Assembly (NCBI GenBank): GCA_030583665.1
Contig: CP129469.1
Coordinates: forward strand, 1,509,043-1,541,042
Source: Candidatus Brocadiaceae baterium WH-1
Lineage (GTDB): Bacteria > Planctomycetota > Brocadiia > Brocadiales > Brocadiaceae
Direction: 5' to 3'
DNA: 32,000 bases
The notes below the pieces were generated by a model. That model worked only from the letters and a program-made list of their open reading frames with translations. It did no database searches and was not told where the DNA came from. The position numbers and the translations under genes were made by a program. Positions 8,799 through 25,152 of this stretch are shown here, one piece after another (position 1 is the stretch's first letter; every line of letters starts with the position of its first letter).

Positions 8799-9194
8799 TT
8801 ATCGTTTTGTCCACTGGAAGCTCTTTCTTGCTCCCTTTTGTCCGTATTTTTTGCGCTCTTTCATCCTGCTGTCCCTTGTCAAAAACCCCTGATCACGCAA
8901 ACTTTCGGTAAGGGAAGGGTTGGTTTTCGACAATGCACGCGCAATACCTAACGATATGGCTCCAGCCTGACCAGTGATACCACCGCCTCTTACATTTACC
9001 AATACATCGTATTCATCATGTAGTTCGGATGTTTTCAGAGGAGCACAAGCTATCCCTCGGTCACGTTCTATGGGAAAATATTTATCCATATCTACATTAT
9101 TTACCACAACCTTCCCGTTTCCCTTGATTAGTCTCACCCTTGCAATAGAAGTCTTCCGTCTTCCTGTACCCCAAATATATTGTTCTGCTGTCAT
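8799..9194 (-). CDS. rpsI: 30S ribosomal protein S9
   Basis: 131 aa. GGGITGQAGAISLGIARAL and the C-terminal basic tail KKYGQKGARKSFQWTKR. Follows rplM as in the conserved operon. Confidence 0.97.
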   Translation of the reverse strand: MTAEQYIWGTGRRKTSIARVRLIKGNGKVVVNNVDMDKYFPIERDRGIACAPLKTSELHDEYDVLVNVRGGGITGQAGAISLGIARALSKTNPSLTESLRDQGFLTRDSRMKERKKYGQKGARKSFQWTKR

Positions 9195-9209
9195 TATGTA
9201 TTCCTCTCA

Positions 9210-9644
9210 TTAATTACGAATAGTCAGTTCTTTTGGTTGCTGAGCCTGATGCGGATGTTCGGCGCCTGCATAAATTTTCAGTTTCTTTAACATAGCCTTA
9301 CCCAGCCTTGTTCTGGGCAGCATCCTTTTTACTGACCGGTTCAGTACTTTTTCAGGAGCTGTTTTAAGGGTTTCTCCAACCATCCGTTTCCGCAAACCAC
9401 TTTGATAGCCAGTTACATAAAAATGAATCTTTTCTTTCATCTTTTTCCCGGTAAGTTTTACCTTGTTTGCATTGGTAATAATAACAAAGTCTCCGACATC
9501 AACATGAGGGGTATATTCAGGTTTATGCTTACCCTGAAGAACCCTTGATACCGTTGTTAACATCCTGCCAAGGACCTTTTCATTGGCATCAACGATATAC
9601 CAATTCCTTTTTACATCCTCTTTCCTAGCCATAAAAGTTTTCAT
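9210..9644 (-). CDS. rplM: 50S ribosomal protein L13
   Basis: 144 aa. N-terminal KRNWYIVDA..KVLGR and GKHKPEYTPHVDVGDFVIITNA motifs. AAGGATG SD. Confidence 0.97.
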   Translation of the reverse strand: MKTFMARKEDVKRNWYIVDANEKVLGRMLTTVSRVLQGKHKPEYTPHVDVGDFVIITNANKVKLTGKKMKEKIHFYVTGYQSGLRKRMVGETLKTAPEKVLNRSVKRMLPRTRLGKAMLKKLKIYAGAEHPHQAQQPKELTIRN

Positions 9645-9664
9645 TATTCTGCATCCTTTAAGCG

Positions 9665-9700
9665 ATTAAAATTAAAAAGCGCCTTAAAGAAAAAGGCGCT
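9665..9700 (-). terminator. Rho-independent terminator-like hairpin plus U-tract, about 20 nt upstream of the rplM SD
   Basis: The minus strand reads AGCGCCTT-tttcttt-AAGGCGCT followed by TTTTTAATTTTAAT: an 8-bp GC-rich stem, 7-nt loop and T-rich tail. Confidence 0.6.
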
Positions 9701-9796
9701 CTTGCGGTATAAATACCCCCGTAACCCACCAACAATCACACATAAAATCGTAACCTTAACGACAGGGTACGATTCCCATGCTAAAAAACTATTTAT

Positions 9797-9970
9797 TCAT
9801 TTCCTGCAGTTACAAACGCTTGATTTGCCTTCACAGTGGCTGCATGGACATCCTTGCGGACACAGACATGCATCAGCAACTGCTGACCTTATAAGCATTG
9901 ATACATTTGTCAGGCCAATTCCAAGCATGATTATCCAGAATACCATAAATGAAATAAGGCATTTTTTCAT
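9797..9970 (-). CDS. Small (57 aa) signal-peptide/TM plus Cys-rich peptide, unannotated in the ORF track
   Basis: Hand translation: MKKCLISFMVFWIIMLGIGLTNVSMLIRSAVADACLCPQGCPCSHCEGKSSVCNCRK*. Strong SD (AAAGGAG, about 10 nt before the ATG), an upstream promoter (10072-10100) and a downstream terminator (9665-9700). Seven Cys in the last 23 residues. Confidence 0.6.
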   Translation of the reverse strand: MKKCLISFMVFWIIMLGIGLTNVSMLIRSAVADACLCPQGCPCSHCEGKSSVCNCRK

Positions 9971-10071
9971 TTACTCATCGCTCCTTTCATGGACAATACT
10001 ATACTTGCATCCGGAAAGAATCGGCATGTACAATAAGTGAACCATAAGTCATGTATATAATAGAGTTATAT

Positions 10072-10100
10072 TTTATATCAAAATGTATACATATTGTCAA
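10072..10100 (-). promoter_or_regulatory. Sigma70-type promoter (extended -10) for the small Cys-rich ORF
   Basis: The minus strand reads TTGACA (10100-10095), a 17-nt spacer, then TGaTATAAA (-10 at 10077-10072). Confidence 0.5.
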
Positions 10101-10204
10101 TTATATTTTGTCCTTGAAGGCTAAATTCCTATTGACATCTTTGCAGCTTATCATTACCATTAACGGAATTAAAAACCAGCTTTAAATTAGGCCTTCGGCG
10201 ACTA

Positions 10205-10576
10205 AAAAACACATTTTCCCTCTCTTGATGGGAGGGACTAAGGGAGGGTGATCGGTTTGTTCCTTTCACCCCCACCTAACCTCCCCCATCGAGGGGGAGG
10301 AACTAATAGTTTGAAATTCCTATACATCAAGGTTAGCCCCGTTAAGGGTGATCTGTTTGTAGTTTAATAACTACGGTAAACAGCTCCGTAGGAGCGGCCT
10401 GTATATGATTAATAGACAAACATGCCTGAGTAGGGGCTGGTTTGAAACCCATTTTTGCATCAAGATATTCCATGAACGTAGAGACGCACTGCAGTGCGTC
10501 TGTACTCCCCCTTAACAAAGGGGATTCAGGGGGTTGTCGTAAAACCGCTTCAATGAAATGAAAATTCCTATACAAT
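10205..10576. repeat. Intergenic nest of short G/C-run hairpin repeats (MITE/REP-like modules)
   Basis: Consecutive modules: CCCTCTCttgatgGGAGGGactaaGGGAGGG; CACCCCCACCTAACCTCCCCCatcgaGGGGGAGG; GTAAACAGCTCCGTAGGAGCGGCCTGTA; GTAGGGGCTGGTTTGAAACCC (second copy at 8699); palindrome GTAGAGACGCACTGCAGTGCGTCTGTAC (10478-10505, relative at 25828); CCCCTTaacaAAGGGG plus a 57-nt element (second copy at 22484). The motif AAATTCCTAT recurs at 10123, 10314 and 10562. Confidence 0.7.
10520..10576 (+). repeat. 57-nt repeat element, copy 1 (upstream of the FabZ-like gene)
   Basis: GGGGATTCAGGGGGTTGTCGTAAAACCGCTTCAATGAAATGAAAATTCCTATACAAT. By my alignment, 50 of 57 positions are identical to 22484-22540. 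Confidence 0.75.
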
Positions 10577-10620
10577 TCAATTAAGATCGGGGATATTATT
10601 TTTAAGAAAAGAGATTTCCA

Positions 10621-11094
10621 ATGCCGCAAGATATATTTATTGATGTAAGCACACTGGATTTTAATAATCCGATAAAGGATATAAATGCAATTCGTACTGT
10701 CATACCACACCGGTATGAGATGGAGCAGTTATGCGGGATATTGATGTTTGATATTGATCAAAGGATTATTGTAGGATATAAAGATGTCACAGATAAGGAA
10801 TTCTGGGTAAGAGGGCACATTCCCGGACGTCCTCTGATGCCGGGGGTAATGATGCTGGAAGCAGCAGCACAATTGTGTACGTATTATTATAAACAGACCA
10901 CGAAGGATGACCGGTTCTTGGGTTTTGGTGGCATTGATGACGTTAAATTCCGGGGGAAGGTTGTGCCTGGCGATAAACTGATCCTGATTGCCAAAAATAA
11001 GGAATTGCGTTCACGGAGGGCTGTTTTTGATACACAGGGGGTGGTGAACGGTAAGCTGGTGTTTGAAGGAATTATTATCGGAATGGTGGTATAA
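10621..11094 (+). CDS. FabZ/FabA-like 3-hydroxyacyl-ACP dehydratase (hotdog fold), orphan paralogue
   Basis: 157 aa. IPHRYEM, the catalytic-His motif GHIPGRPLMPGVMMLEAAAQ (compare GHFPxxPxMPGVLxxEAxAQ), and C-terminal hotdog strands. Confidence 0.8.
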   Translation: MPQDIFIDVSTLDFNNPIKDINAIRTVIPHRYEMEQLCGILMFDIDQRIIVGYKDVTDKEFWVRGHIPGRPLMPGVMMLEAAAQLCTYYYKQTTKDDRFLGFGGIDDVKFRGKVVPGDKLILIAKNKELRSRRAVFDTQGVVNGKLVFEGIIIGMVV

Positions 11095-11186
11095 GGCTTA
11101 GATAGATAACAGACAACATTGGATCGGGGAAATGATACAATAATAAAACCTGATGTCCGCATGAGTACGATTATTTCTGCATAATA

Positions 11187-11891
11187 TTATAAGTCTCTCA
11201 TAGCTAAAACATTATGTAAACATGAAATGTTTTTGATAAAATAATCAGGTTTTATGTGTTTTTCCGGTTCCTTTACATATGCTTTATAGTGTCTGCCATG
11301 TTCAATCATTACCGTGGTTATCCCTAAAGATTTTCCTGCAGTTAACTCATCATCAATCTTATCCCCAACGCAAATAATTTCTTCCTGTTTTACCCGGTAT
11401 CGTTGGATGATATTCCTGAAATGATCTTTTTTGGTAGGGGGGGTGTCTCTTCGCGCAATGAGAATATCATCAAAATAGGAACCGCTAAGTCCAAGAACTT
11501 CAATTTTCCTTGTTTGTATTTGCTCTTCTCCGGAGGTTACGAGAGCTAATGTATAGCCTTGTGCCTTTAATTTCTTTAAGATAGTTATCACATCGGGAAA
11601 GGGTGTAATATCTGAAATTTCTATTTGAATAAATTCCTCTAAAAATTCTCTGATATATTTCCGGGGAAGGCGATAAATCGCGACGATCTTCTCATAAATA
11701 TTTACCTTTGTTCCATATTCTTCTTCGATTTCAGACTGAAGAAGATATGCCTCTTCTTCTGTACAGTTTATAATCCCCGCAATTGTCCTGGCCACCCGCC
11801 TCCTGCCACGCACCACCAGTGTGTTACTGCAATCATAGAGGGTATCATCTAAATCAAAGATAATAAGTTTAACCATATTGAAATTCTTCAA
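11187..11891 (-). CDS. HAD-superfamily hydrolase
   Basis: 234 aa. Motif I IIFDLDDTLYD, motif II LVTSG, motif IV VGDKIDDE. Confidence 0.8.
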   Translation of the reverse strand: MKNFNMVKLIIFDLDDTLYDCSNTLVVRGRRRVARTIAGIINCTEEEAYLLQSEIEEEYGTKVNIYEKIVAIYRLPRKYIREFLEEFIQIEISDITPFPDVITILKKLKAQGYTLALVTSGEEQIQTRKIEVLGLSGSYFDDILIARRDTPPTKKDHFRNIIQRYRVKQEEIICVGDKIDDELTAGKSLGITTVMIEHGRHYKAYVKEPEKHIKPDYFIKNISCLHNVLAMRDL

Positions 11892-11897
11892 GAATTC

Positions 11898-13595
11898 TCA
11901 ACGAAGATAAGCCTCAGTGACATACCGGCGCATCATACGATGGCTATTAAAATAATAGGCAACCTTACTGATCGAATTTTTCATAATCTTTATCCATTGT
12001 GTTTTATCATGATAATACATAGGGATAATAATGTTCTCCAGCTTGTTGTACAAGTCTTCAGCATCCGATGTGTCGTCAATGATAGTAAGTGATGATTCCA
12101 GAGGTTTTGGCCCGATAGACCAGCCAGTAACGTCTTCAATGTGTCCCTCAATCCACCATCCGTCCAGGATACTAAAGTTTATTACTCCATTGTGAGATGC
12201 CTTCATACCGCTGGTACCGGATGCTTCACGCGGACGCAAAGGTGTATTTAGCCAGACATCCACACCCGGAATCAGCTTCAATGCCATCTCAATATTATAA
12301 TCTTTTAAAAAGACAACCGTAATTCTTTCGTTATTTATTTTTACAAGCTGATGAATCTTTTTTATAAGTTCCTTACCGTCTTTATCTTTTGGATGTGCCT
12401 TCCCGGCATAAATAATCTGTACTTTTCCTTTTTCGCACACCGTCAATAACCGTTCCAGATTTGAAAATAGTAAATCCGCCCTTTTATAGGAAGTGAATCT
12501 CCTTGCAAACCCAATGGTGAGTACATCAATGCCAACTTTTGTGGTAGTTACCTTTGTAATATACTCAATCAGTTCTTTCTTTGCGAAAAGATGTGCTTCC
12601 CATATTTCCTCATCAGGAATTGTTTCCGCCCTGACAAACAGCTCAGGTTCATTGGCCCAGCTCGGTATGTATTTATCATACAACTGCCGGAAACTTTGAC
12701 ATGTCCAGGTAAATGAGTGAACCCCGTTGGTAATTGCACAGATCTCATATCCCGGAAACAGATTTTTGGATACTTCGCCGTGTTTTTTTGCCACACCGTT
12801 AACATATTTGCTCAGATTTAACGCAAGGAGTGTCATGTTAAGATGAGGTTCACCACCAAGTTTTTTCAACTGTTCCAGCGGAATAATATCACCCAGAATT
12901 TTTTGTACAAGATCATAAGAAAACCGATCATGACCTGCCTCGACAGGGGTGTGTGTTGTAAAGACGCATAAATCCCTTACTGTGTCGATATCCCAAACCC
13001 ATTGCTCATGCCACACAGTCTCAACATCCCTTTTGTGTTTTAAAAGAAGTTCGAGAGTAAGCAAACTGGCATGCCCTTCGTTCATATGATATTTTTTTAT
13101 GTTATATCCCAGTGCACGAAGCATTCTTACACCGCCAATACCAAGGACAATTTCTTGCTTGAGACGGTAACTATCGTCGCCACCGTAAAGGAAGTAAGTG
13201 ATTTCCCTGTCTGCCTTTGTATTTTCTTCCAAATCGGTATCAAGATAGAGTACGTCAATTTCACCACCTGTAAGGCTTTTAATCCTATACTGCCAGGCTT
13301 GAATATAGACCTTGCGCTCCTCTATATGAACCATAACCCGCTTGGACAAACGTACCATAAATCTGGCCGGGTCCCAGTCTATAGGGTACTCTATTTGCCT
13401 GCCTTCGGTATCAATATCCTGGGAGAAATAACCCTTTTTCGATATGAGTGTAACAGCCACCAGAGGTATTTTAAGGTCAGCACATGATTTTATGGTATCA
13501 CCGGCAAGAACACCAAGACCGCCACTGTAAGTTGGTATGTCGTTGGAGAGTCCGATTTCCATTGAAAAATAGGCAATTTTAGTTTCAGTGTTCAT
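11898..13595 (-). CDS. glgP: Alpha-glucan (glycogen/maltodextrin) phosphorylase, short GT35 type
   Basis: 565 aa. GGLGVLAGD near the N-terminus. The PLP-lysine region EASGTSGMKASHNG. DGWW motif. Confidence 0.88.
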   Translation of the reverse strand: MNTETKIAYFSMEIGLSNDIPTYSGGLGVLAGDTIKSCADLKIPLVAVTLISKKGYFSQDIDTEGRQIEYPIDWDPARFMVRLSKRVMVHIEERKVYIQAWQYRIKSLTGGEIDVLYLDTDLEENTKADREITYFLYGGDDSYRLKQEIVLGIGGVRMLRALGYNIKKYHMNEGHASLLTLELLLKHKRDVETVWHEQWVWDIDTVRDLCVFTTHTPVEAGHDRFSYDLVQKILGDIIPLEQLKKLGGEPHLNMTLLALNLSKYVNGVAKKHGEVSKNLFPGYEICAITNGVHSFTWTCQSFRQLYDKYIPSWANEPELFVRAETIPDEEIWEAHLFAKKELIEYITKVTTTKVGIDVLTIGFARRFTSYKRADLLFSNLERLLTVCEKGKVQIIYAGKAHPKDKDGKELIKKIHQLVKINNERITVVFLKDYNIEMALKLIPGVDVWLNTPLRPREASGTSGMKASHNGVINFSILDGWWIEGHIEDVTGWSIGPKPLESSLTIIDDTSDAEDLYNKLENIIIPMYYHDKTQWIKIMKNSISKVAYYFNSHRMMRRYVTEAYLR

Positions 13596-13603
13596 TTTAT
13601 TTA

Positions 13604-15232
13604 TTATAGATGTTTATTCACTCTCTTTATAAGGGATATATTTCCGGAATAATCTACAGGGCAATCGATAACGGCAGGGCATTGTTGTGTGAAGGCGTCT
13701 TGTAAGACAGCCTTTAGCTCATGAGCTGAAGACACACGATAACCTTTTGCACCAAAACTTTCGGCATATTTAACAAAATCCGGGTTGGTAAAATCGACAA
13801 ATGCGGAGCGTCCAACGGTATTCAGTTGTTTTGATTTGATAACACCATAACCGCCGTCATTAATAATTAATGTCACAAAGGAAACACCGAGCCGCACAGC
13901 CGTTTCTATTTCCTGTGAATTCATAAGAAAGCCACCGTCTCCGGTTATAGCAAGAACCTTACGTTCCGGATAGACTAGTTTTGCAGCGATAGCACCTGGC
14001 AATGCAATGCCCATAGATGCAAAACCATTGGATATAATACATGTATTCGGTCTGTATACTGGATAGACACGTGAAACCCATAATTTGTGTGCCCCTACAT
14101 CACTAAGAAGAATATCATCAGGACACAATACTTGGCGTATTTCGCATAATATCTTTTGAGGTTTCAGCGGAAATGAGCAGTTGGCATGCATAATCTCATG
14201 TTCTTTCATTACGGAATTTCGTAAAAGACAAACAATATTTTCCGGATCCTTTAACCTGATCAAATTGGATAAATGATTCAGCGTTTCTGAGATTTTGCCG
14301 ATTACCTCCAGATCTGCATTGTAAAATGCGTCTACCTCTCCGGGAGTTGTATCGATGTGCAGGATTTTTTTGTTTTTTTGCGGGTTCCAATGTTGAGGAT
14401 GATGTTCTACGAGATCATAACCGATCGCTATAATCAAATCTGACTGATCAAATCCGCACGAGATATAATCGGTATCCTGCAAGCCAATTGCATGCAAAGA
14501 AAGAGGGGAGTCTTCAGGAATTGATCCTTTCCCCATAAAGGTTGTGGCTACAGGAATATGCAATTTATTTGCAAAATTGGTCAATGCCGCTGCCGCATGT
14601 GCCCTTAATACTCCATTTCCTGCTAGGATAACCGGATAGCGGGCATCCGAAACTAACTTCGCTGCAATTTTCAATGTTTCCGGAGTAGGATGCGGAACCG
14701 GTATCTTTTCTTTCAAAGGAATTGGCTGCTCTTGTATGTCTGCCTTTGCCACATCTTCCGGAAAATCTATATGGGTTGCTCCCGGTTTTTCCATCTGGGC
14801 AAGTTTAAAAGCCTTCCGTACGACCTCCGGAATTACATCTGCTGTATGCACCAGGGTATTCCACTTTGTAATCGGTTTAAACATACCAACCGTATCCATA
14901 TACTGATGAGATTCCTTATGCATACGGTCGAGGCTTGCCTGCCCTGTGATAGCAACAAGTGGTGCCCTGTCCATGTTTGCATCAGCAACTCCGGTTACAA
15001 GATTCGTTGCTCCCGGACCTAATGTGGACAAGCAGACACCTGCTTTTCCTGTGAGCCGTCCATAAACATCTGCCATAAAAGCCGCACCCTGTTCATGGCG
15101 GGTTGTGATAAATTGTATCCTGGATCCTAAAAGGGAATCAAGGATATCAATATTTTCTTCTCCTGGAATCCCAAAGATATATTTGACTCCCTCATTTTCC
15201 AAACATTTAACAAACAGATCAGATGCTTTCAT
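13604..15232 (-). CDS. alsS: Thiamine-diphosphate-dependent acetolactate synthase-like enzyme (catabolic AlsS type, no small subunit nearby)
   Basis: 542 aa. N-terminal VKYIFGIPGEENIDILD, HEQGAAFMADVYGRLTGKAGVC, and the TPP-binding GDGGFLMNSQEIETAVR motif. Confidence 0.75.
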   Translation of the reverse strand: MKASDLFVKCLENEGVKYIFGIPGEENIDILDSLLGSRIQFITTRHEQGAAFMADVYGRLTGKAGVCLSTLGPGATNLVTGVADANMDRAPLVAITGQASLDRMHKESHQYMDTVGMFKPITKWNTLVHTADVIPEVVRKAFKLAQMEKPGATHIDFPEDVAKADIQEQPIPLKEKIPVPHPTPETLKIAAKLVSDARYPVILAGNGVLRAHAAAALTNFANKLHIPVATTFMGKGSIPEDSPLSLHAIGLQDTDYISCGFDQSDLIIAIGYDLVEHHPQHWNPQKNKKILHIDTTPGEVDAFYNADLEVIGKISETLNHLSNLIRLKDPENIVCLLRNSVMKEHEIMHANCSFPLKPQKILCEIRQVLCPDDILLSDVGAHKLWVSRVYPVYRPNTCIISNGFASMGIALPGAIAAKLVYPERKVLAITGDGGFLMNSQEIETAVRLGVSFVTLIINDGGYGVIKSKQLNTVGRSAFVDFTNPDFVKYAESFGAKGYRVSSAHELKAVLQDAFTQQCPAVIDCPVDYSGNISLIKRVNKHL

Positions 15233-15304
15233 AATACAAACGAAAATCAGTAAATTTCATTTCGAAGATTTTCTATTTCCTTCAGCTTCAGCTTCACCTT
15301 ATAT

Positions 15305-16744
15305 TTATAAATGAATGGATTTATCAGTGGCTGCTTGTGCAGCTTCAAGAAGGGCTTCCGAAAGGGTAGGGTGGGGAAAAATGCACCTTGTTAATTCAAT
15401 GGATGTTCCTTCCAGTATTGTTGCCAATGATATACCCCACAATAGTTCACTTACATTTGAACCTATGGCATGCACACCCAAAATCTCATGATATTTCTCG
15501 TCCGTAATGATTTTTATAAACCCATCCTGATACTCACCTTCAATAACGGCCTTACTATTTGCAGCAAGTGGAAATTTACCCACCTTAACCCTCAATCCTT
15601 TATTTTCTGCTTCCTCACTGGTTAATCCTATGCTGGCAACCTGGGGAAGACAGTAGGTAACGCGGGGGATATTCTGATACTGTATTGCAGGAACCCCTTT
15701 CCCTGAAATATGAGCTACAGCAGCCAAGCCTTCATTTAATGCCTTATGGGCAAGGAGCGGCGGGCCGGCGATGTCTCCGATTGCAAAAATACCTTTTTGG
15801 AAGGTTTCCATGTTGTTGTTGACCTGTACATATTTTCCTTTCAGGCCTAAAGATACATTTTCTATTCCAAGATGTTCAAGTGTGGGTATCCTGCCTAAAG
15901 CAAGCAGCAAATAATCTGCTTCAAGATAATCCGTATCTTCTGTTATAGAAGGGGGGGGAGATGATAGTGTATCTTTTCTTTTTATCTTTGCACGGACACC
16001 TTTATCATTAATTTCAACATCCTCCAATGAAGTACCAACCAGAATGTCTATGCCCCGCCTGGTAAATATTTTTCCCAGGGTAGTGCTTATTTCCTTATCT
16101 TCAGCGGGAAGGATGGTGTCCATAAGTTCGACAATCTTAACTTTAGTTCCGAGGACATTGAAGAGATAGGCATATTCTGAACCAACGGCACCCCCGCCTG
16201 CAATAATAATTGATTTTGGAATTTCCTCGTGTATCAATATATCATCACTGGTGAATACATTTTTCCGGTTGTGTGGAATCCCTTTGGGAACAAAGGGAGA
16301 AGAACCCGTTGCAAGGATAACATTTTTTGCACGTATATTGCCAATGTCTGTTCCGTTTTTTTTGATGAGAATTTCGTTTGGCGATATGAGCTGTCCTTCA
16401 CCTTCAATGACTTCTACACCATTTTTCTTCAGTAAAAACTGTACCCCCTGATATAAACGACTAACTACAGATTCCTTCCGGCGGTGGAATTGGGAATAGT
16501 CTACGTTTAAGGTATCAATAACAATCCCATAATCCCTGGCTTTTTTTAATTTGTCGTATATGCCGGCTGAGTAAAGTAATGTTTTTGTTGGAATGCAACC
16601 CCAATGCAGGCAGACACCACCTACCATTCCTTTCTCTATGAGAGCCGTTTTTATTCCCGACTGAGCTGCTTTTATAGCAGCAACATACCCTCCCGGTCCT
16701 GCACCGATAATTGCAAGGTCGTACACAAAACTTCTTTCTGGCAA
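15305..16744 (-). CDS. lpdA: Dihydrolipoyl dehydrogenase (E3)
   Basis: 479 aa. FAD motif IIGAGPGGY, redox disulfide GGVCLHWGCIPTK, and the C-terminal His-Glu region FPHPTLSEA. The ORF-track start is TTG, directly after the stop of a small upstream ORF. No E1 or E2 genes in the window. Confidence 0.88.
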   Translation of the reverse strand: MPERSFVYDLAIIGAGPGGYVAAIKAAQSGIKTALIEKGMVGGVCLHWGCIPTKTLLYSAGIYDKLKKARDYGIVIDTLNVDYSQFHRRKESVVSRLYQGVQFLLKKNGVEVIEGEGQLISPNEILIKKNGTDIGNIRAKNVILATGSSPFVPKGIPHNRKNVFTSDDILIHEEIPKSIIIAGGGAVGSEYAYLFNVLGTKVKIVELMDTILPAEDKEISTTLGKIFTRRGIDILVGTSLEDVEINDKGVRAKIKRKDTLSSPPPSITEDTDYLEADYLLLALGRIPTLEHLGIENVSLGLKGKYVQVNNNMETFQKGIFAIGDIAGPPLLAHKALNEGLAAVAHISGKGVPAIQYQNIPRVTYCLPQVASIGLTSEEAENKGLRVKVGKFPLAANSKAVIEGEYQDGFIKIITDEKYHEILGVHAIGSNVSELLWGISLATILEGTSIELTRCIFPHPTLSEALLEAAQAATDKSIHL

Positions 16745-16873
16745 TTATGCTTCCTTCTTCCAGGTGAATAATATGAGAAAGAGAAGGGCAAGGGTAATAA
16801 TCATAATCGTTTTCGGGCTTATATCCGGTATTATTGAATTTTCCATAGCAAATGACAATAATTTGCCAATCAT
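16745..16873 (-). CDS. Small (42 aa) single-TM protein, unannotated in the ORF track
   Basis: MIGKLLSFAMENSIIPDISPKTIMIITLALLFLILFTWKKEA*. Strong SD (AAGGAGGTAGGAG) upstream of the ATG at 16873. Its TAA abuts the lpdA TTG start. Confidence 0.4.
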   Translation of the reverse strand: MIGKLLSFAMENSIIPDISPKTIMIITLALLFLILFTWKKEA

Positions 16874-16910
16874 AAGATCTCCTACCTCCTTATTGTTTTA
16901 TTAAATTACG

Positions 16911-16955
16911 GGTTTCAGATTGCGAATTGCGGATTACCATTCGCAATCTGAAATC
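16911..16955 (-). terminator. Long perfect hairpin 28 nt after the radical SAM stop; probable 3' boundary of the lipid operon
   Basis: TTTCAGATTGCGAAT (16913-16927) and ATTCGCAATCTGAAA (16939-16953) form a 15-bp perfect stem, extendable to 17, with an 11-nt loop. The downstream minus-strand sequence is A/T-rich but has no clean U-run. Confidence 0.45.
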
Positions 16956-16982
16956 GCCTTTGGTTCCGTATAACAAGTACGA

Positions 16983-18443
16983 TTACGTTGAAAAACTTCC
17001 CACGAGTGGTTTTTCGATGGTTACAGAGTTTGATTTGTACCAATCTTTGTAATAATCACCAGAATCATATAATTCTTTTAAATTCTGCAACACCTGTTCG
17101 AACACCTGTTTCCAATCAGAGCCAACCCTGAATGCAAACATGGAATTCCTTGGATTCTTTGTCGTTGCGATAGAATTCTTAAATCGTGACCTTAAATTAT
17201 TTCCGGCATAAATGTGATCATAAACATACTGCATGCCTTCAATAAAATCCTCAAGCGTCATATCAACAAATCTATGGACAACATGCGCAGTATCGTAGTA
17301 TTGCCAGTCAGCCGGATAGTTTTTTCTGAAAATCCTCTTTTCTGAATCCAGCCTTGCATAAAGCTGTGTCTTAGGGAAAGGACAATTAATGCCAAAGGTC
17401 AAAATGTCAATATTGTTTTCCAGCACAAAATCAGTCATTCTTTTAAAAGAATCTTTATCATCACCATCCGCTCCAAACACTACCGATCCCCAGACGACTA
17501 ATCCGGCATTGTGGATCTTTTGTATGCATTCATAGTAACTATCGGTGCCTAATTTAAGATTTACCTTTTTATTCATTTTCTCCAATACCGCTTCATTGGT
17601 CGACTCTATACCAATAAGCATGCCAAAGTTACCACTTTTGGCCATATAATCAAGGGTCTCCGGATCTTGAGAAATATTGAGGGCGGTAAACCCTAACCAA
17701 TCTTTATGTATGCCACGTTCCACCATGCCTTTAAAAAGATTTCGTGCCCTTTCGTTTGATTTTTTGCCATGTCCGTAAAAATTATCCTCTGCAAGCATTA
17801 ATCCTTTATAGTCCGTTGCCTCCATTTCTTCGATCACATCTTCGTAAGGCCTTTCCCTGAATTTTCTTCCCTGGAATGTAGGTACACTGCAAAAATCGCA
17901 ATAATTAGGGCACCCTTTCGTGGTTATAATAGAAGAAAATTTATAATTGTATTTTCTTTTCATAAGCTCTCTGTCAGGATATACCCGTTTCAGCAGACTC
18001 AGCGGAGGTAAACCTCCCTGGTATACCTTTTTTAATTTTCCTTCTTCAAAATCCTTTATAACCTGCGGCCATAGTTCTTCTGCTTCCCCTATAAAGACAG
18101 CATCAGCATATTGTGCTGCTTCTTCAGGCATAACAGAGGCATGTATCCCACCCATAATTACCGTCATACCTCTTTTCCTGCAAGCTTCTGCAATCATATA
18201 AGCCCTTGGAGATTGATAAGTTACTGCGGTAATACATACAAGGTCTACGGGTTTGAAGGTAAGTTCACCGTGATCATCTATCGCCAGTTCAATATTCTCG
18301 TCAATTACATCAAATTCCCAGTCACCTGGCGTAAGAGCAGCTATATAGGCAAGGTTTAAAGGCATTTGTACAATTACGGTAATGCTTTCCTCGCCGCACC
18401 TGCCTGGTGTATGTGGATTAATCAACATCATTTTTTTCGTCAT
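16983..18443 (-). CDS. B12-binding-domain radical SAM enzyme (class B)
   Basis: CxxxCxxC cluster motif TKGCPNYCDFCSVP. N-terminal Rossmann-like cobalamin-binding domain (VDLVCITAVTYQSPRAYMIAEACRKRGMTVIMGGIHAS). I moved the start to the ATG at 18443 (MTKKMMLINP): a GGAGG SD lies 9 nt upstream and ATGA overlaps the upstream stop. The ORF-track TTG at 18458 is less likely. Confidence 0.88.
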   Translation of the reverse strand: MTKKMMLINPHTPGRCGEESITVIVQMPLNLAYIAALTPGDWEFDVIDENIELAIDDHGELTFKPVDLVCITAVTYQSPRAYMIAEACRKRGMTVIMGGIHASVMPEEAAQYADAVFIGEAEELWPQVIKDFEEGKLKKVYQGGLPPLSLLKRVYPDRELMKRKYNYKFSSIITTKGCPNYCDFCSVPTFQGRKFRERPYEDVIEEMEATDYKGLMLAEDNFYGHGKKSNERARNLFKGMVERGIHKDWLGFTALNISQDPETLDYMAKSGNFGMLIGIESTNEAVLEKMNKKVNLKLGTDSYYECIQKIHNAGLVVWGSVVFGADGDDKDSFKRMTDFVLENNIDILTFGINCPFPKTQLYARLDSEKRIFRKNYPADWQYYDTAHVVHRFVDMTLEDFIEGMQYVYDHIYAGNNLRSRFKNSIATTKNPRNSMFAFRVGSDWKQVFEQVLQNLKELYDSGDYYKDWYKSNSVTIEKPLVGSFST

Positions 18444-19903
18444 AATATTAGCCTCCAATTCTTCATAATTAAATTAGCAGCACTCCAGCCTGAAGAGACC
18501 ACAGCAGCAATTCCAGGACCTGGCCTTGTCCAATGCCCAGCTAAATATAAATTCTCAATTGTTGTCTCATGCGGCGGCCTGTTATTCCACATTTGATTTA
18601 CTGTAACCTCCCAACCATAAGCAGCACCATTCGTATTTGATGTGTAACGCTCCAGGGTCTTTGGGGTAGCGGCTTCTTTTACTTCAATATACTCTTTCAG
18701 ACGGGGAACATATTTTTCTAATTGATTGATGGTATGGTCAGTCATGTGTTCTTTGAAAGCATGCCAGTTGGTGATGCCATGGTAAACGTCTTCGTTTACA
18801 GAAACAACTACAGAAACAATCTGTTTACCGGGAGGCGCAAGTTCAGGACATATCATCGTTGGAACGGAGATGTACATCCACTCTCCATCTGAAAATCCCC
18901 AATCAGAGGTTTTATGATAAAACCCTCTCTTTAATCTGCAAATATCTGCATCTCCTTTTAAGCCCAAATATAAAAGAAAAAAAGAACAACTACATTTCAT
19001 CGTCTGAATCTTTTGAAGAAACAATAGGTCTCCCTTGGCATCCAACAGTTCCAGAAAAGTTCTTCGTACGTCAATTGCTGAAACTACTAAATCAGACGAT
19101 ATCTCTTTACCATTTTTGAGGATAACGCCTTTCACCGCATTATTTTTTAATGGGATTTTTACCGCCTCGGATGATAACATAACGTGTCCATTAAAATCAA
19201 TAAATTTCTTAAAAATTGCATTGGCAAATGCTTGTGTGCCACCTGCCGGAAAATAGGCGCCGTCCTTGAGATAATTAACCATCATTTGGCACATAGCAAT
19301 GGCAGAGGCATTAGCAGGGGGGAGGCCTATATAACCCCATTGCCCGGAAAGTACTGTTTTGAGTTCTTCGTTGCTGAAAAAAGCATCAAGCATTTCACCA
19401 TAGGTTTGATTTTTATAGATATTGATAATTTGACTGTTTTCACTATTAAACGTGGCACGGTAAAGTCTTACAAAATCGTGAAAAAATTTCTTCATGGCAT
19501 GTTTTTCTGCCGGATAACGATCCTGTAAGCGGGCGATGTATTCGTCAAGATTAGCGGGGATCTCAATACTGAAACCAGGATAGATAAGGTTGTCCATCGG
19601 GTCAAGCAGATGGAAATCCATTTCAATCCCAAGCAGCTTAAAACAGCGGCCAACAATACTCCATTTTCCGCATCCCCCGATATGGTGAACCGCTGCATCA
19701 AAATAGAAACCTTTTCTTTTAAATGAAGTGCAGTAACCTCCGGGAATAGAATGTTGTTCAACAATAAGCACTCTTTTGCCACTTTGGGCAAGTAATGCAC
19801 CACAAACGAGGCCTGCTATACCTGCGCCAATTACAATTACATCATAAGAGGGATACAACAAATCATTCTTTGTTGATTGAATGAGCCTGTGGGAATGAAC
19901 CAT
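18440..19903 (-). CDS. Phytoene-desaturase (CrtI/CrtD)-family FAD-dependent oxidoreductase
   Basis: 487 aa. Dinucleotide fold YDVIVIGAGIAGLVCGALLAQSGKRVLIVEQHSIPGG. C-terminal LYLAGHWTRPGPGIAAVVSSG is typical of the CrtI family. Starts 3 nt after the KS-like stop. Confidence 0.82.
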   Translation of the reverse strand: MVHSHRLIQSTKNDLLYPSYDVIVIGAGIAGLVCGALLAQSGKRVLIVEQHSIPGGYCTSFKRKGFYFDAAVHHIGGCGKWSIVGRCFKLLGIEMDFHLLDPMDNLIYPGFSIEIPANLDEYIARLQDRYPAEKHAMKKFFHDFVRLYRATFNSENSQIINIYKNQTYGEMLDAFFSNEELKTVLSGQWGYIGLPPANASAIAMCQMMVNYLKDGAYFPAGGTQAFANAIFKKFIDFNGHVMLSSEAVKIPLKNNAVKGVILKNGKEISSDLVVSAIDVRRTFLELLDAKGDLLFLQKIQTMKCSCSFFLLYLGLKGDADICRLKRGFYHKTSDWGFSDGEWMYISVPTMICPELAPPGKQIVSVVVSVNEDVYHGITNWHAFKEHMTDHTINQLEKYVPRLKEYIEVKEAATPKTLERYTSNTNGAAYGWEVTVNQMWNNRPPHETTIENLYLAGHWTRPGPGIAAVVSSGWSAANLIMKNWRLIL

Positions 19904-19906
19904 GTG

Positions 19907-21148
19907 TTACTGTTTATATTTGGAGATAATCAAGGAAGAGTTATTACCTAATCTGGTGAAGGAATTTATCAACACATTTTTGACAGGTAAGGAAGTTTTT
20001 TCCGTTACAAAAGGCAAATCACATTTTTCATCATGCTCCTTATAGTTGATTATAGGTGGAACTGTATGTGTGTTGAGAGACATAACTGCTGCTATGGTTT
20101 GTAATGCGCCTGATGCATCAAGACATTCTCCTGTTGCAGACTTAATGGCAGTTACAGGAATTAGCTTTGCACGCATACCAAAAACCTCTTTAATAACCAT
20201 GGTTTCCATAGCATCGCCATATACACCGGAATACGCATTGGCAGAGATATACGAAATATCATGCAATGTCAGACCAGCATCTTCAATGGCTTCCAAGATC
20301 GACCTTTTGTTACCACCTATCTGATAGTCCTTTCTTATTGCCATTTCAGGATCAAAGGCAGTTCCGTAACCTTTTACTTCAGCATAGATATGTGCATTTC
20401 TCTTGAGTGCATCGTCCAGGGTTTCAAGAATAACCAACGCCGAAGCCTCACCTATAATTAGCCCATTGCGTCTTTTGTCAAAAGGGGCGCAAATTTCCAG
20501 TGTTCCATCTCTGCTTCCAGCCAGTATTTTAGCGTTATGTGAACCCCAGAAAATATCATGGGTCAATCCATGCACTCCACCTGCTACCACTGCCTTTACA
20601 CGTCCCATACGAAGGAAATCAGAAGCATAAATAATAGCATCGATACTGCTTGTGACACCATTTGATATGGTGGTATTAAGCCCGGTTGCCTTACAAAAAA
20701 TAGATGCACGGCTCGCCGGTGCATTTAATACGGTATTGGGAAAATCCATAGGGTTAACATAATTAGGTCCTTCACGAAGTGACTGGAAATCAAATGAACT
20801 GATGCTGTCTATGCTGCCATAAGTAGAACCGACAACTATACCTAATTCGTCTCCGCTATATATCGTATTGTCCAGATTGGCATCTTTCATAGCAAGGATT
20901 GTAGCGGATGATACGAGAAGGGAGGTTCTGTCGATATGCCGGATCCCTTTTGATCCAAGATAAACTTTAGCATCAAAATCTGAGATTTCCCCAGCCTGTT
21001 TGCAACGAAATTTACTCACATCAAATAAGGTAACAGGCTTTATACCTAAGACACCATCAGTTAAATTCTTCCAATAACTATCCTTGCCTGTTCCAATAGG
21101 CGAGATAACGGAAACACCCGTAATTACAATCCTTTTTCTTTCCATCAT
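19907..21148 (-). CDS. Beta-ketoacyl synthase homologue lacking the Cys-His-His catalytic triad (chain-length-factor-like / KS-beta-like)
   Basis: Full-length thiolase-fold KS that aligns with the adjacent FabF. TACAAG becomes NGVTSS (no Cys), YISAHGTGT becomes YISANAYSG (His to Asn), and IKSMIGHT becomes IKSATGEC (His to Glu). I prefer the start at ATGATG 21148 (MMERKRIVITGV, GAGG SD) over the ORF-track 21199, which has no SD. Confidence 0.8.
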   Translation of the reverse strand: MMERKRIVITGVSVISPIGTGKDSYWKNLTDGVLGIKPVTLFDVSKFRCKQAGEISDFDAKVYLGSKGIRHIDRTSLLVSSATILAMKDANLDNTIYSGDELGIVVGSTYGSIDSISSFDFQSLREGPNYVNPMDFPNTVLNAPASRASIFCKATGLNTTISNGVTSSIDAIIYASDFLRMGRVKAVVAGGVHGLTHDIFWGSHNAKILAGSRDGTLEICAPFDKRRNGLIIGEASALVILETLDDALKRNAHIYAEVKGYGTAFDPEMAIRKDYQIGGNKRSILEAIEDAGLTLHDISYISANAYSGVYGDAMETMVIKEVFGMRAKLIPVTAIKSATGECLDASGALQTIAAVMSLNTHTVPPIINYKEHDEKCDLPFVTEKTSLPVKNVLINSFTRLGNNSSLIISKYKQ

Positions 21149-21225
21149 TAACCTCAGACAGAAGGTGTAAAAAACACCCTTAATACCATTTTTATTCAAA
21201 ACTGGTCATAAATATTATAACAGAC

Positions 21226-22446
21226 TTACTCCGTAAATTTCTTAACGACCAGACAGCTATTATTTCCACCAAACGCATGAGCGTTATTGAGTGCAACAAC
21301 CACTCCTTGTCTTCTCATAACATTGGGTACATAATCCAGGTCACATTCCGGATCGGGCGTTTCGTAATTTATGGTAGGAGGAATAATTGCATTCTGGATA
21401 GCCAAAGCACAAGTAATAGCTTCAATAGCACTTGCGGCTCCCATTGTATGGCCAATCATGGATTTTATTGAGCTGATTGCCAGATGTGCAGGTTTTTCTC
21501 CAAACACCTTTTTGATAGAGATCGTCTCTGCTTTATCATTGGCAGGCGTTCCTGTACCATGAGCACTGATATACTGAACATCCTCAGGCTTTAGATTTGC
21601 GCTCTTAAGGGCCTTTTTCATTGCCGAAACCACACCTTCGCCGTCAGGATGGGGAATGGTAATATGATAGGCATCGCAGCTAAGGCCGTAACCAATAATC
21701 TCAGCATAGATATGTGCGTTCCTCTGTAATGCATGATCAAGTGATTCCAAAAGGAGAATTCCGGCACCTTCACCAACCATCATACCTTTTCTGTTTTTAT
21801 CAAACGGCTGACATATCTCCGGGGCAATAGCACCTAACCTTGCGAATCCTGTATATGCTACTTTCGAGAAAGGATCAGATCCCCCGGCAACCATCAGATC
21901 GACCCTTCCGAATTTAATTAAATCAAAGGCATAGCCTATCGCATAGTTCCCGGCTGCGCATGCGGTTGGAATAATTGTATTTGGTCCTTTAAATCCAAAT
22001 TCAATTGCGATGTTAGCAGGGATATTATTGCAGGGATGCATCAGAAAAAGATACGGATCAACCTTATCTTCACCCTCTTTGTGTCTGATGTAATTAACTT
22101 TTTCAAGAATCTGTATTTCTCCGGCAGTTGTCCCTACAGAAACCCCTATTCTTTCTAAATCAATTTTTTCCAGGTCAAGCTTTCCATCGTCAATGGCAAG
22201 TTTTGTAGCTGCTATTCCAAATTGTGATCCTTTACCAATTTGTTTGAGAACACCGTTCTTTCTATAATCATTGTAGTTGAAATTCTTAACCTCGCATCCT
22301 TTATGAACCTTATATTCTGAGGTATCAATGCACGTAACAATATCAACGCCGGATACGCCTGAAATGAGGGCGTTCCAGAAGGTGTCTTTCCCTGATCCTA
22401 TAGGGGTAATCATCCCTACGCCTGTTATAACAACGCGTTTATTCAT
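21226..22446 (-). CDS. fabF: Beta-ketoacyl-ACP synthase II, catalytically intact
   Basis: 406 aa. Active-site Cys in [14 protein letters not shown]. His in [15 protein letters not shown] and [16 protein letters not shown]-terminal [18 protein letters not shown]. Confidence 0.9.
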
Positions 22447-22483
22447 ACTACAAGTTAGTTCCTCAAAGTCTTCTTTAAAAAAA

Positions 22484-22540
22484 GGGGGTTCAGGGGGTTG
22501 TTGTAAAGCCGTTTAAATAAAATGAAAGTTCCTATACAAT
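22484..22540 (+). repeat. 57-nt repeat element, copy 2 (in the fabZ-fabF intergenic gap)
   Basis: GGGGGTTCAGGGGGTTGTTGTAAAGCCGTTTAAATAAAATGAAAGTTCCTATACAAT. About 88 percent identical to 10520-10576, in the same plus orientation, which is antisense to the operon. Confidence 0.75.
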
Positions 22541-22548
22541 ATAAATGA

Positions 22549-22998
22549 TTATATTAGTGTGCTTTTCTCCGCGATTCCAAATGTTAAAGTAGCTTTGGCT
22601 GCGGATTTTTCATCAACCTTTACTATTGCCTGTACGATAGCTCCCTTGGATACAATCTTTTCAACCGTTATTTCTATGTGAAGCCGATCGCCGGGAAAAA
22701 CGGGCTTTGTAAAGCGTGCGTTACCAATCGATGCCAGCAAGAAAACCGTATCGTTGCCGTTTTGCACGGCAAGGCTTTTCTTAAATAGGATAATGGATGC
22801 CTGGGCCATCGCTTCAATGATCAACACCCCAGGCATGATAGCAAAATCAGGAAAATGCCCGACAAAAACCGGTTCATTGCATGAAACGTTTTTTATACAA
22901 ATAATTCTTTTCCCTTCTTCATACTCCACGACTTTATCAATAAATATAAAGGGATATTTTTGCGGAAGTAGGGACCTGATTTCCTCAAAATGTATCAT
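22549..22998 (-). CDS. fabZ: 3-hydroxyacyl-ACP dehydratase FabZ
   Basis: 149 aa. LPQKYPFIFIDKV, catalytic GHFPDFAIMPGVLIIEAMAQ, hotdog fold. Confidence 0.9.
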   Translation of the reverse strand: MIHFEEIRSLLPQKYPFIFIDKVVEYEEGKRIICIKNVSCNEPVFVGHFPDFAIMPGVLIIEAMAQASIILFKKSLAVQNGNDTVFLLASIGNARFTKPVFPGDRLHIEITVEKIVSKGAIVQAIVKVDEKSAAKATLTFGIAEKSTLI

Positions 22999-23058
22999 CT
23001 CGGTAAACCTTTTTCTTTTTGCAGCATTCGAGTATTGTAAATCCTGCGGGTTGTATAG

Positions 23059-23086
23059 ATTGTAAGATCCGGATAAAACCTGTCAA
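23059..23086 (-). promoter_or_regulatory. Possible internal sigma70-type promoter between ACP and fabZ
   Basis: The minus strand reads TTGACA (23086-23081, abutting the ACP TGA), a 16-nt spacer, then TACAAT (23064-23059). Consensus match only. Confidence 0.3.
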
Positions 23087-23356
23087 TCAAGATGTTAATT
23101 TCCCGTTTTCTGCCAAAACAGATTTTGTCAGATCAATAGTAGCACTTAATGATGTAATATCAACAAGCTTTTCTTCAGGTATCTGCACCTTAAACTTCTT
23201 TTCAATAAGCGCAAGTATCTCAAGAGCTAAAAGGGAATCGATTTCAAGATCCTTAAAGAAATTAGCATCCCTTTTATTCCAGATTTCATTCTCGTCCAAC
23301 TCTGTAACCTCTGCAACAATTGCGGTTACACCTTTTTCAATCTCTTCAGCGTTCAA
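23087..23356 (-). CDS. Dedicated acyl carrier protein
   Basis: 89 aa. Phosphopantetheine site DLEIDSLLALE, preceded by NFFK. TTG start supported by a strong SD (AAGGAGG, 6-nt spacer). About 10 residues longer at the C-terminus than typical AcpP. Confidence 0.85.
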   Translation of the reverse strand: MNAEEIEKGVTAIVAEVTELDENEIWNKRDANFFKDLEIDSLLALEILALIEKKFKVQIPEEKLVDITSLSATIDLTKSVLAENGKLTS

Positions 23357-23435
23357 AATATTCCTCCTTTTGTAATAATACCCGAACAGATTATATGTAT
23401 TTCATCCAGACTGCAATTGAAAATAGGAATGAAAC

Positions 23436-23464
23436 ATGTTAGCAGACACAATTTACATTGTCAA
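23436..23464 (-). promoter_or_regulatory. Sigma70-type promoter (extended -10) for the ACP-led operon
   Basis: The minus strand reads TTGACA (23464-23459), a 17-nt spacer, then TGcTAACAT (-10 at 23441-23436), about 80 nt upstream of the ACP start. Confidence 0.5.
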
Positions 23465-23624
23465 TAATAATATTTATACAGAAAAAATATATAGAAAAAA
23501 CACGACGAACACAAGGAAATAAAACCAAATGAATAATCCTACTATTTTCAAAGAAAATCTACAACGTCTGATAATATATATTATGTTACAATTACAATGA
23601 ATTTTTCCTTTGTGTCATTTTTTG

Positions 23625-24251
23625 TCATGAATTTTGTCGTTTTGCCCGCTTTAAAACCTTGCCTTCTCCTTTTTGTTCATGTTTTCTTGCCTTGTTAAGT
23701 TCTTTTAATGCTCTGTATACCTGATCCTCCAGCATGGTTTCGTACTGACATAATTCTTCCAGCTTATTTTTTATTTCAACTACCTTCCTGGATTTCAAAT
23801 ACGTTATTTCTTTTTCAGTCCTTTTTCTCACTCTAAAAAACCCTTGTTCATATTCTGAAACATCAAATGTTGCATATTCCATAATCTGGCTTTCAATTCT
23901 TAAGCACCTTTTCAACCGCCATATACCGGAGACAATACGGTCTACCATAATTAATTCAATCAGGTTGGAAGGTTTCAGTTCTTTCACAAATTTGTTTCTG
24001 ATTTCTTCAAGGTGCTCTTTGCTTTCACCTTCTATTACAATTTCATTACTAAGGATAAATTGCCCTGCATTGTATTCTTCTTTTGAACTTGTTAATTCAG
24101 GTGATATCCTGTTCTCTGTATTCGCTGTCTTTTCGTGTTCCGGTATCCTGTGTTGTTCAATTATGGTATTCATTATTTTGTCAATCTTTTCTTTACTTAC
24201 ATCGTCAGGGTTTTTTCCGCGTAACACACCTTCTTTCAAAATTGCAGACAT
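23625..24251 (-). CDS. Hypothetical coiled-coil protein
   Basis: The ORF-track frame is 228 aa. I prefer the ATG at 24251 (MSAILKEG, 208 aa) because AAGGAGG lies 7 nt upstream. Charged, helical C-terminal half. No motif I can assign. Confidence 0.5.
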   Translation of the reverse strand: MSAILKEGVLRGKNPDDVSKEKIDKIMNTIIEQHRIPEHEKTANTENRISPELTSSKEEYNAGQFILSNEIVIEGESKEHLEEIRNKFVKELKPSNLIELIMVDRIVSGIWRLKRCLRIESQIMEYATFDVSEYEQGFFRVRKRTEKEITYLKSRKVVEIKNKLEELCQYETMLEDQVYRALKELNKARKHEQKGEGKVLKRAKRQNS

Positions 24252-24507
24252 TTGCCCCCTCCTTTCTGCGATAGAATTGTGCAGGACTATTTTACACTCT
24301 TGCCGATGCATCCGAATTATGATACTTGCACATAATATCCTATAAAATAAGACGATTCAATAAATTATTTTATTAACAATAAAATACTTAAAAACTTTAA
24401 AACAATTGAAATAAACTGTTATAATGATATCTGAACAGGTATTAAAAAACGAACATATATTGTGAAACAAAACTGAAGCGATCCTGAATACTAAGAGGCA
24501 ATTTGCG

Positions 24508-25152
24508 GTGAGAATTACTGAAATATTCAAAAGCATACAAGGAGAAACATCATACTCAGGGAAACCCTGTACCTTCATACGTATTACAGGTTGTAACCTG
24601 CGATGTACCTATTGTGATACTTCCTACGCCTATGAGGAGGGATGTGAACTCTCTGTAAATTCCATCCTTGAAGATGTTGATCGTTTCGGGACAAAATTAA
24701 TTTGTATAACCGGCGGAGAACCTTTATCAAATGCGGACACACTATTCTTAATAAAAGAGTTGCTGAAAAAAAACTATACGGTACTCGTTGAGACAAACGG
24801 AAGTTACGATATTCGTATTCTACCTCCCGATGTTATAAAGATTATGGATATTAAGTGTCCGGGTAGCAATATGAGCCATTTCATGCATTGGCCAAATGTC
24901 AAACATCTTAAACGCCTTGATGAGGTTAAGTTTGTCTTAACATCAAGGAAAGACTATGACTGGGCAAAGGAGGTAATACAAAAATACCGTTTATCCAGAG
25001 TGACGAATGTATTAATCGGTACAGCCTGCCCTTCTGTTAATTCTGTTAATCCGGCATCCGTGGTTCAATGGATTCTCGAAGATAATCTTGACGTGAGATT
25101 TCAGTTACAAATACATAAACACATATGGGATCCGGAAACGAGAGGTGTTTAA
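24508..25152 (+). CDS. queE: 7-carboxy-7-deazaguanine synthase (radical SAM)
   Basis: 214 aa with a GTG start and AAGAGG SD. EIFKSIQGETSYSGKPCTFIRITGCNLRCTYCDT is the QueE signature with CxxxCxxC. Adjacent to queC. Confidence 0.9.
   Translation: MRITEIFKSIQGETSYSGKPCTFIRITGCNLRCTYCDTSYAYEEGCELSVNSILEDVDRFGTKLICITGGEPLSNADTLFLIKELLKKNYTVLVETNGSYDIRILPPDVIKIMDIKCPGSNMSHFMHWPNVKHLKRLDEVKFVLTSRKDYDWAKEVIQKYRLSRVTNVLIGTACPSVNSVNPASVVQWILEDNLDVRFQLQIHKHIWDPETRGV

Follow-up and report, generated by a model that had tools for sequence, protein, structure and literature searches.

A ketosynthase and its triad-less, probably chain-length-factor-like partner in the putative ladderane-lipid cluster of an anammox bacterium

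We analysed a stretch of 32,000 nucleotides from Candidatus Brocadiaceae bacterium WH-1 (contig CP129469.1, positions 1,509,043 to 1,541,042; hereafter the window), in which two adjacent genes encode an active ketosynthase (KS), KS1, and a homologue that has lost the catalytic triad, KS2. Judged by their sequences, the two correspond to amxFabF2 and amxFabFmut of anammox Cluster I, the putative ladderane-lipid cluster (kuste3603-3608 in K. stuttgartiensis), and KS2 is very probably the dead-site partner of KS1 in a heterodimer, in which it takes a role like that of a chain-length factor (CLF). How anammox bacteria make ladderanes, a unique kind of highly strained membrane lipid, is unsolved. 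Few parts of the candidate cluster have both a solved structure and a known activity in vitro, and the pair of a live and a dead KS is among them. It is an already known pair, its dead triad having been published in 2009 and the heterodimer model, with crystal structures, in 2026; the pair in the window adds no new biology beyond the published system.

Both open reading frames (ORFs) contain the N- and C-terminal ketoacyl-synt domains of Pfam, and the two proteins align end to end (34% identity, E = 3e-76 in BLASTP). The catalytic set of KS1 is complete, with Cys163 (PTACAAG), His296 (SAHGTGT) and Lys328 and His333 (both in IKSMIGHT), next to the gate residue Phe392, whereas KS2 has Val164 (SNGVTSS), Asn303 (SANAYSG) and Glu340 (IKSATGEC) at the Cys/His/His positions. 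The three replacements had been reported in a first-pass annotation of this DNA, and the motif pairs PTACAAG/SNGVTSS, YISAHGTGT/YISANAYSG and IKSMIGHT/IKSATGEC were read identically in the pairwise alignment and in MAFFT and hidden Markov model (HMM) alignments of 114-115 orthologues, which were in the same register; the profile alignments, too, put Val/Asn/Glu and not a Cys and two His at the catalytic positions of KS2. The same annotation had counted the Lys of ANDKAE (YGDAME in KS2) among the losses. The replacement itself was found (Lys305 to Ala312), but this lysine is not the catalytic one: its column varies across the 115 KS2 orthologues (A 42, K 36, R 16, M 11, others), and the catalytic Lys of the IKS motif (Lys328 in KS1, Lys335 in KS2) is retained in 115 out of 115.

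In NCBIfam, KS1 scored above the cut-off of the KAS II subfamily NF005589 (457 > 387) and slightly under that of the FabF/KAS II equivalog TIGR03150 (471.9 vs 493.75 bits) with its triad present, while KS2, with its triad absent, reached 310.7 bits on the latter and falls outside FabF/KAS II. No model specifically naming KS1 or KS2 was found in the NCBIfam scan, in which the models of cispentacin AmcF and AmcE matched below their cut-offs. As to the extent of KS2, the mechanically derived ORF (430 aa, from a TTG at 21199) is probably 18 codons too long at its start. Gene callers on identical contigs gave 412 aa, orthologues are 410-414 aa long and a GAGG box lies shortly 5' of an ATG ATG at 21148/21145, and for these reasons the shorter gene (Table 1) was adopted.

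The closest relatives of KS2 were all found in anammox bacteria (Brocadia, Jettenia, Kuenenia, Scalindua and others), the best match among species-representative genomes being that of Candidatus Loosdrechtia aerotolerans (86%), and the exact KS1 sequence was found on many metagenome contigs. Among solved structures, KS1 matched chain B of PDB entry 9S5H (89% identity, E = 6e-249) and KS2 matched chain C (84% identity, E = 1.7e-230), both from B. fulgida; 9S5H and 9S5I each hold both KS chains, and 9S5I also holds the acyl carrier protein (ACP). The gene order ACP-FabZ-KS1-KS2-PDH-B12 radical SAM (PDH standing for a phytoene-desaturase-like amine oxidase) was observed in ~75 Brocadiales loci, wherever the contig was long enough, and also in Scalindua japonica, while the genes flanking the six-gene cluster vary between families. 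The substitution pattern of KS2 recurs in ~75 Brocadiales genomes and is therefore not a product of chance.

The orthologous proteins have been studied for some time. In 2009 Rattray et al. listed Val163/Asn298/Lys328/Glu333 for Kuste3606 (their Table 2) and argued that it could not be a normal FabF (PMC2649909), and Javidpour et al. (2016) labelled the same protein a 'non-canonical FabF' (PMC4790861). In a preprint of May 2026 it was found that the FabF homologues of Kuenenia and Brocadia co-purify, that neither is active alone, and that the heterodimer decarboxylates malonyl-amxACP and forms acetoacetyl-ACP (10.64898/2026.05.19.726425). Crystal structures of the B. fulgida heterodimer contain one tunnel that passes through the live site and is partly lined by Phe135, Thr138 and Val139 of the dead subunit, and a second tunnel that leads to the dead site of KS2; in crosslinking, C8 and C6 probes were preferred over C16, and mutation of Phe135 and Val139 shifted the preference (10.64898/2026.05.19.726425). 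The authors of the preprint refer to the dead subunit as a chain-length-factor-like partner (10.64898/2026.05.19.726425).

We found all residues of KS1 that the preprint names (the Cys, both His, the gate Phe, the Ala/Phe/Met tunnel residues and the Mg site) conserved in the window, and Phe135, Thr138 and Val139 are all present in its KS2. The sole mismatch, 'Ile112', is a matter of numbering, since the local sequence of the crystallised chain is identical. The first-pass annotation had read the genes as a KS-alpha/CLF-like pair whose second member sets chain length or primes the chain. The experiments on orthologues that are 84-89% identical, among them the shift in probe-length preference of the F135/V139 mutants, support this reading together with the conservation pattern described below; for its further suggestion, an effect on the degree of unsaturation, no support was found.

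The KS2 gene is under strong purifying selection, far from neutral: against five Brocadiaceae relatives its nonsynonymous divergence (dN) was 0.08-0.14 and its synonymous divergence (dS), where estimable, was saturated (~1.5-2.3), with a ratio (omega) of ~0.05, that of KS1 being somewhat lower (~0.02). Over 114 orthologues, 117 columns are invariant and the most conserved window of 15 residues is 135-149 (FPNTVLNAPASRASI), which is the segment that lines the tunnel; the segments next in rank are 63-77, 106-120 and the pocket segment 333-347, and the FPNTV motif is invariant in all 83 loci examined. The position of the nucleophile, on the other hand, drifts as expected of a site that is no longer in catalytic use (V 76, T 26, E 7, I 6 and never Q among 115 orthologues), and the position of the first His is occupied by N or C. 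The conservation pattern of KS2 is that expected of a structural, tunnel-shaping subunit and not that of an enzyme.

To place KS2 among its relatives, the representatives of clusters at 50% identity were searched exhaustively. The nearest relatives outside the anammox bacteria are stand-alone proteins of 400-420 aa (up to 49% identity), in which the Cys and the first His are nearly always absent, the Lys is kept and the position of the second His is Glu; others are the C-terminal halves of KS-KS fusions of ~820 aa. In a distance-based neighbour-joining tree of 130 domains, sampled from the top 150 KS2 hits, sequences with and without the triad separated in 200 out of 200 bootstraps. KS2 was found on the triad-less side, grouped with triad-less proteins of other lineages, and KS1 on the other, with B. 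subtilis FabF, the partner KSs and the N-terminal halves of the fusions. A recent duplication of KS1 within the anammox bacteria was considered and rejected, as in none of the 200 bootstraps do KS1 and KS2 form a clade of their own; the duplication therefore long predates the anammox bacteria. These comparisons place KS2 in an old clade of triad-less partners that is widespread over several phyla, either as stand-alone proteins or as C-terminal halves of fusions.

Type II polyketide synthase (PKS) CLFs have Gln at the position of the ketosynthase Cys. KS2 has Val there and does not belong to the type II PKS CLF lineage. It scored 243 bits against B. subtilis FabF, 223 against the orthologue of its partner and 135 against the actinorhodin (act) CLF (1TQY_B). 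A profile of 44 non-anammox triad-less proteins, in which FPNTV is conserved and the Lys and Gly-Glu of KSxxGE are invariant, ranked a single solved structure, 9S5H_C, above the active ketosynthases, and it placed all FabFs (~355-430 bits) above the act CLF (286 bits). KS2 would thus act like a CLF while appearing to belong to a separate clade.

One protein of a 2.5-kb metagenome contig (P0054, L006 1-2503), with the pattern VHKHF, was considered as an evolutionary intermediate that keeps both His residues and was rejected, as windowed identity revealed a chimera: residues 1 to ~255 are ~90% KS2-like, whereas the last third is like that of an active KS. Next to the gene come those for a different ACP and a desaturase-like protein. 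Two sequences were probably joined here during metagenome assembly, at the NAHIYAE region that they share.

In the mechanism that we propose, KS1 would provide the only working Cys-His-His site of the pair, and KS2, with the thiolase fold kept, would neither form an acyl-enzyme nor decarboxylate malonyl-ACP. KS2 would replace the second KS1 subunit of the dimer, and its helix-loop-helix (~106-149, including Phe135, Thr138 and Val139) would close and shape the acyl tunnel of KS1. Supplied by the ACP of the cluster, the heterodimer would decarboxylate and condense malonyl-ACP in a tunnel that favours short acyl chains (~C6-C8), so that it would most likely prime or extend a short linear part of a specialised lipid, which the desaturase-like and B12 radical-SAM enzymes encoded next to it might then modify. 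The proteins of the window are expected to behave as their orthologues do, forming a heterodimer that is active only with both subunits, and the product of the pathway is presumed to be a ladderane lipid.

Several points weigh against this proposal. The invariance of Lys335, Glu340 and Cys341 in the dead site of KS2 (114 orthologues) exceeds what a purely passive pocket needs. The net charges of the helix-loop-helix and of the partner helix (-2/+2 in KS1, -3/0 in KS2, similar over 83 loci), a crude linear count and not a surface calculation, did not reproduce the electrostatic asymmetry that the preprint puts behind the preference for the heterodimer, although such a count is too crude to contradict a calculation in three dimensions. 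In the published work, elongation past acetoacetyl-ACP was not seen in vitro, the chain-length preference derives from a non-physiological crosslinking reaction and none of the cluster's proteins has been tied directly to ladderane synthesis (10.64898/2026.05.19.726425). Finally, the experiments were all done on orthologues (of K. stuttgartiensis and B. fulgida).

The same invariant residues, the strong purifying selection and the second tunnel in the crystal structure (10.64898/2026.05.19.726425) are what could be expected if KS2 were an enzyme with a new reaction, as was suggested in 2009, when it was proposed that a remodelled site joins a short acyl chain to a ready-made ladderane unit (PMC2649909). 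We consider this very improbable: with V, T, E or I at the nucleophile position, depending on the lineage, and N or C at the first His, there is no consistent catalytic set, KS2 alone is inactive and does not crosslink with probe-loaded ACP, and the authors of the preprint explicitly rejected the 2009 proposal (10.64898/2026.05.19.726425). No more credible is a role of KS2 as a priming decarboxylase that makes the acetyl starter in its own pocket, as was once proposed for type II PKS CLFs. The conversion of malonyl-amxACP to acetyl-ACP and acetoacetyl-ACP by the heterodimer and by neither subunit alone would fit such a role, but in the crystal structure the tunnel of KS2 has no access to a catalytic triad (10.64898/2026.05.19.726425). 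KS2 moreover has neither the Gln that replaces the Cys in PKS CLFs nor either of the two histidines that are required for decarboxylation, and the decarboxylation is more simply ascribed to KS1 stabilised by KS2.

That KS2 is a decaying duplicate without a function might be read from the loss of all three catalytic residues and from a divergence that is faster than that of KS1 (78-86% vs 85-92% identity within the Brocadiaceae). The probability of this is next to nil, as the pseudogene reading is already refuted by the conservation data: the ORF is intact and of full length in >100 orthologues, and the low dN/dS and the many invariant columns agree with the first-pass annotation, which had held KS2 not to be a decayed pseudogene. 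In addition, the protein was reported to be expressed and crystallised (10.64898/2026.05.19.726425), and KS2 stands in an old clade of triad-less partners from several phyla. The reading of KS2 as a dead-site, chain-length-factor-like subunit may nevertheless be too modest. It is conceivable, though rather unlikely, that KS2 is more than a passive tunnel wall and that the Lys335/Glu340/Cys341 pocket with its own tunnel binds an intermediate or docks the desaturase-like or radical-SAM enzymes. If the pocket were indeed functional, the clade would point to a large class of unexplored pathways, similar to fatty-acid synthesis (FAS), by which anaerobes make modified lipids.

Related cassettes were also found outside the anammox bacteria. 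On five non-anammox contigs (L005, L080, L082, L085 and L088) the order is ACP-dehydratase-KS-dead KS-amine oxidase, at 43-62% identity. The first four belong to metagenome-assembled genomes (MAGs) labelled delta proteobacterium and others; in these nearest relatives the KS is 57-62% identical to KS1 and the dead KS, in which the FPNTV and KSxxGE motifs are retained, 43-48% identical to KS2. L005 (644-12079) and L082 and L085 (~6000-17200) also have three B12 radical-SAM paralogues and another one or two KS pairs, and L088 has two radical-SAM genes together with BcrAD/HGD-D-type genes. Other members of the clade adjoin genes for an ACP, an ApeI-like dehydratase, an amine oxidase and radical-SAM enzymes. 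In the proteins of ~820 aa (P0123, P0124 and ~35 others) an active KS is fused to a triad-less one; a member of one cluster of these fusions takes its name from a Helarchaeota MAG, and the one fusion representative examined (L089, 6001-8475) adjoins a KS pair and genes for an ACP, a reductase (KR), an acyltransferase and a cyclase. The non-anammox cassettes agree with the synteny that was reported in 2009 for Desulfotalea, Geobacter and Pelobacter (PMC2649909), and the wider distribution is therefore not new.

The features of the cluster region are collected in Table 1. The malonyl-ACP carrier had been placed correctly in the first-pass annotation, at 23087-23356, and is amxACP, with structure matches to PDB 7AUF (E = 1e-43) and 9S5I chain E (E = 2e-41). 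The dehydratase amxFabZ, which has been characterised previously (PMC10139942), matched PDB 8AYD (E = 7e-72) and 7QV0 (E = 5e-59). PDH is syntenic in all Brocadiales loci and scored 189 bits on TIGR02734 (crtI family), short of the cut-off of 238, and the B12 radical-SAM enzyme is 71-90% identical across the Brocadiales.

Table 1. Features of the Cluster I region, in window coordinates
Feature	Coordinates	Strand	Evidence and remarks
Promoter-like site (TTGACA, 17 nt, TG-extended TAACAT)	23436..23464	-	AT-rich spacer upstream of amxACP; consensus match only
amxACP, cluster-specific acyl carrier protein	23087..23356	-	Pfam PP-binding; TTG start, AAGGAGG box 6 nt upstream
amxFabZ, 3-hydroxyacyl-ACP dehydratase variant	22549..22998	-	Pfam FabA
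KS1 = amxFabF2, active ketosynthase	21226..22446	-	406 aa; Pfam, BLASTP, alignments, match to PDB 9S5H chain B
KS2 = amxFabFmut, triad-less chain-length-factor-like partner	19907..21145	-	Pfam, BLASTP, alignments, match to PDB 9S5H chain C
PDH, phytoene-desaturase-like FAD amine oxidase	18440..19903	-	Pfam Amino_oxidase; start 3 nt past the KS2 stop
B12-binding radical SAM enzyme	16983..18443	-	Pfam B12-binding and Radical_SAM; called as 486 aa; start overlaps the PDH stop by 4 nt
42-aa ORF (MIGKLLSFAMENSIIPDISPKTIMIITLALLFLILFTWKKEA), one hydrophobic segment	16745..16873	-	Immediately 3' of the radical SAM gene; gene call in L001-L003

The small ORF of 42 aa is a candidate for a seventh, so far unlisted gene of Cluster I. 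It has counterparts with 68-83% identity in 32 further Brocadiaceae loci (Brocadia, Jettenia, Kuenenia, Loosdrechtia), one of which (L007) lacks the next gene; a tblastn search of the Scalinduaceae gave no match. A scan of 15000-24600 for promoters and terminators gave counts close to the shuffle expectation, with no convincing terminator and, upstream of the ACP gene, one plausible promoter-like site. Rfam and tRNA scans of the entire window gave no matches.

A few observations were made on other genes of the window. On the NCBIfam model TIGR04072 ('rSAM_ladder_B12') the B12 radical-SAM enzyme of the cluster scored 90.5 bits, with a cut-off of 360, and the model evidently describes another B12 radical-SAM family than that of the enzyme at 16983-18443. 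Immediately upstream of amxACP lies the gene for a charged protein of 228 aa (23625-24311, minus strand) without a Pfam or NCBIfam match, which is found at the same position in ~30 Brocadiaceae loci (50-56% identity). A second FabZ/ApeI-like dehydratase (10621-11094, plus strand) scored 104 bits against a FabZ equivalog cut-off of 155 and is kept in the Brocadiaceae at 78-84% identity, downstream of the cluster and on the opposite strand. The genes that come after the cluster (13604-16744, minus strand) encode a dihydrolipoyl dehydrogenase and an acetolactate-synthase-like thiamine pyrophosphate enzyme; they follow it in most Brocadiaceae loci and not in the Scalinduaceae, and are probably neighbours rather than members. 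Farther away, a metal-efflux-like block (1417-6677, minus strand) holds genes for a TolC-like protein, a CusB-like adaptor of 798 aa whose C-terminal extension is long and rich in His, a membrane protein of 326 aa without a family match and a CopY/BlaI-type repressor.

Of the systems described so far, amxFabFhet of B. fulgida and K. stuttgartiensis (KustE3605/KustE3606) has the same gene order, the same six-gene cluster and the same Val/Asn/Glu pattern as the window; the tunnel, gate and metal-site residues are identical, and the comparison suggests no functional difference. The KS-alpha/CLF of type II PKSs (actinorhodin, PDB 1TQY) likewise consists of an active KS gene beside a triad-less homologue, and likewise forms a heterodimer in which the dead subunit helps to shape the acyl tunnel, which for the anammox pair is known from the preprint. 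KS2 differs from such CLFs in having Val164 instead of Gln and in a sequence that is closer to FabF, and the context differs as well, being reducing and FAS-like, with a FabZ, and without cyclase or aromatase genes for the tailoring of aromatic polyketides anywhere in the 32-kb window. A KS/CLF heterodimer that does work with FAS-like reducing enzymes is Iga11/Iga12 of the highly reducing type II PKS for ishigamide (PDB 6KXD-F), and Iga11 was reported as the closest structural match of amxFabF2 (10.64898/2026.05.19.726425). By sequence, however, KS1 is nearer to the FabFs (379 bits against FabF 4LS5 and 333 bits against Iga11, 6KXD_A), the Iga12 CLF was not among the KS2 matches listed, and the partner enzymes and the product of the ishigamide system are unlike those of the anammox cluster. 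The deltaproteobacterial cassettes of the Desulfotalea psychrophila type share the gene order of the anammox bacteria, with orthologues at 45-62% identity in L005, L080, L082 and L085, and differ by three radical-SAM paralogues and additional KS pairs, and the product in D. psychrophila consists of polyunsaturated hydrocarbons, not of ladderanes.

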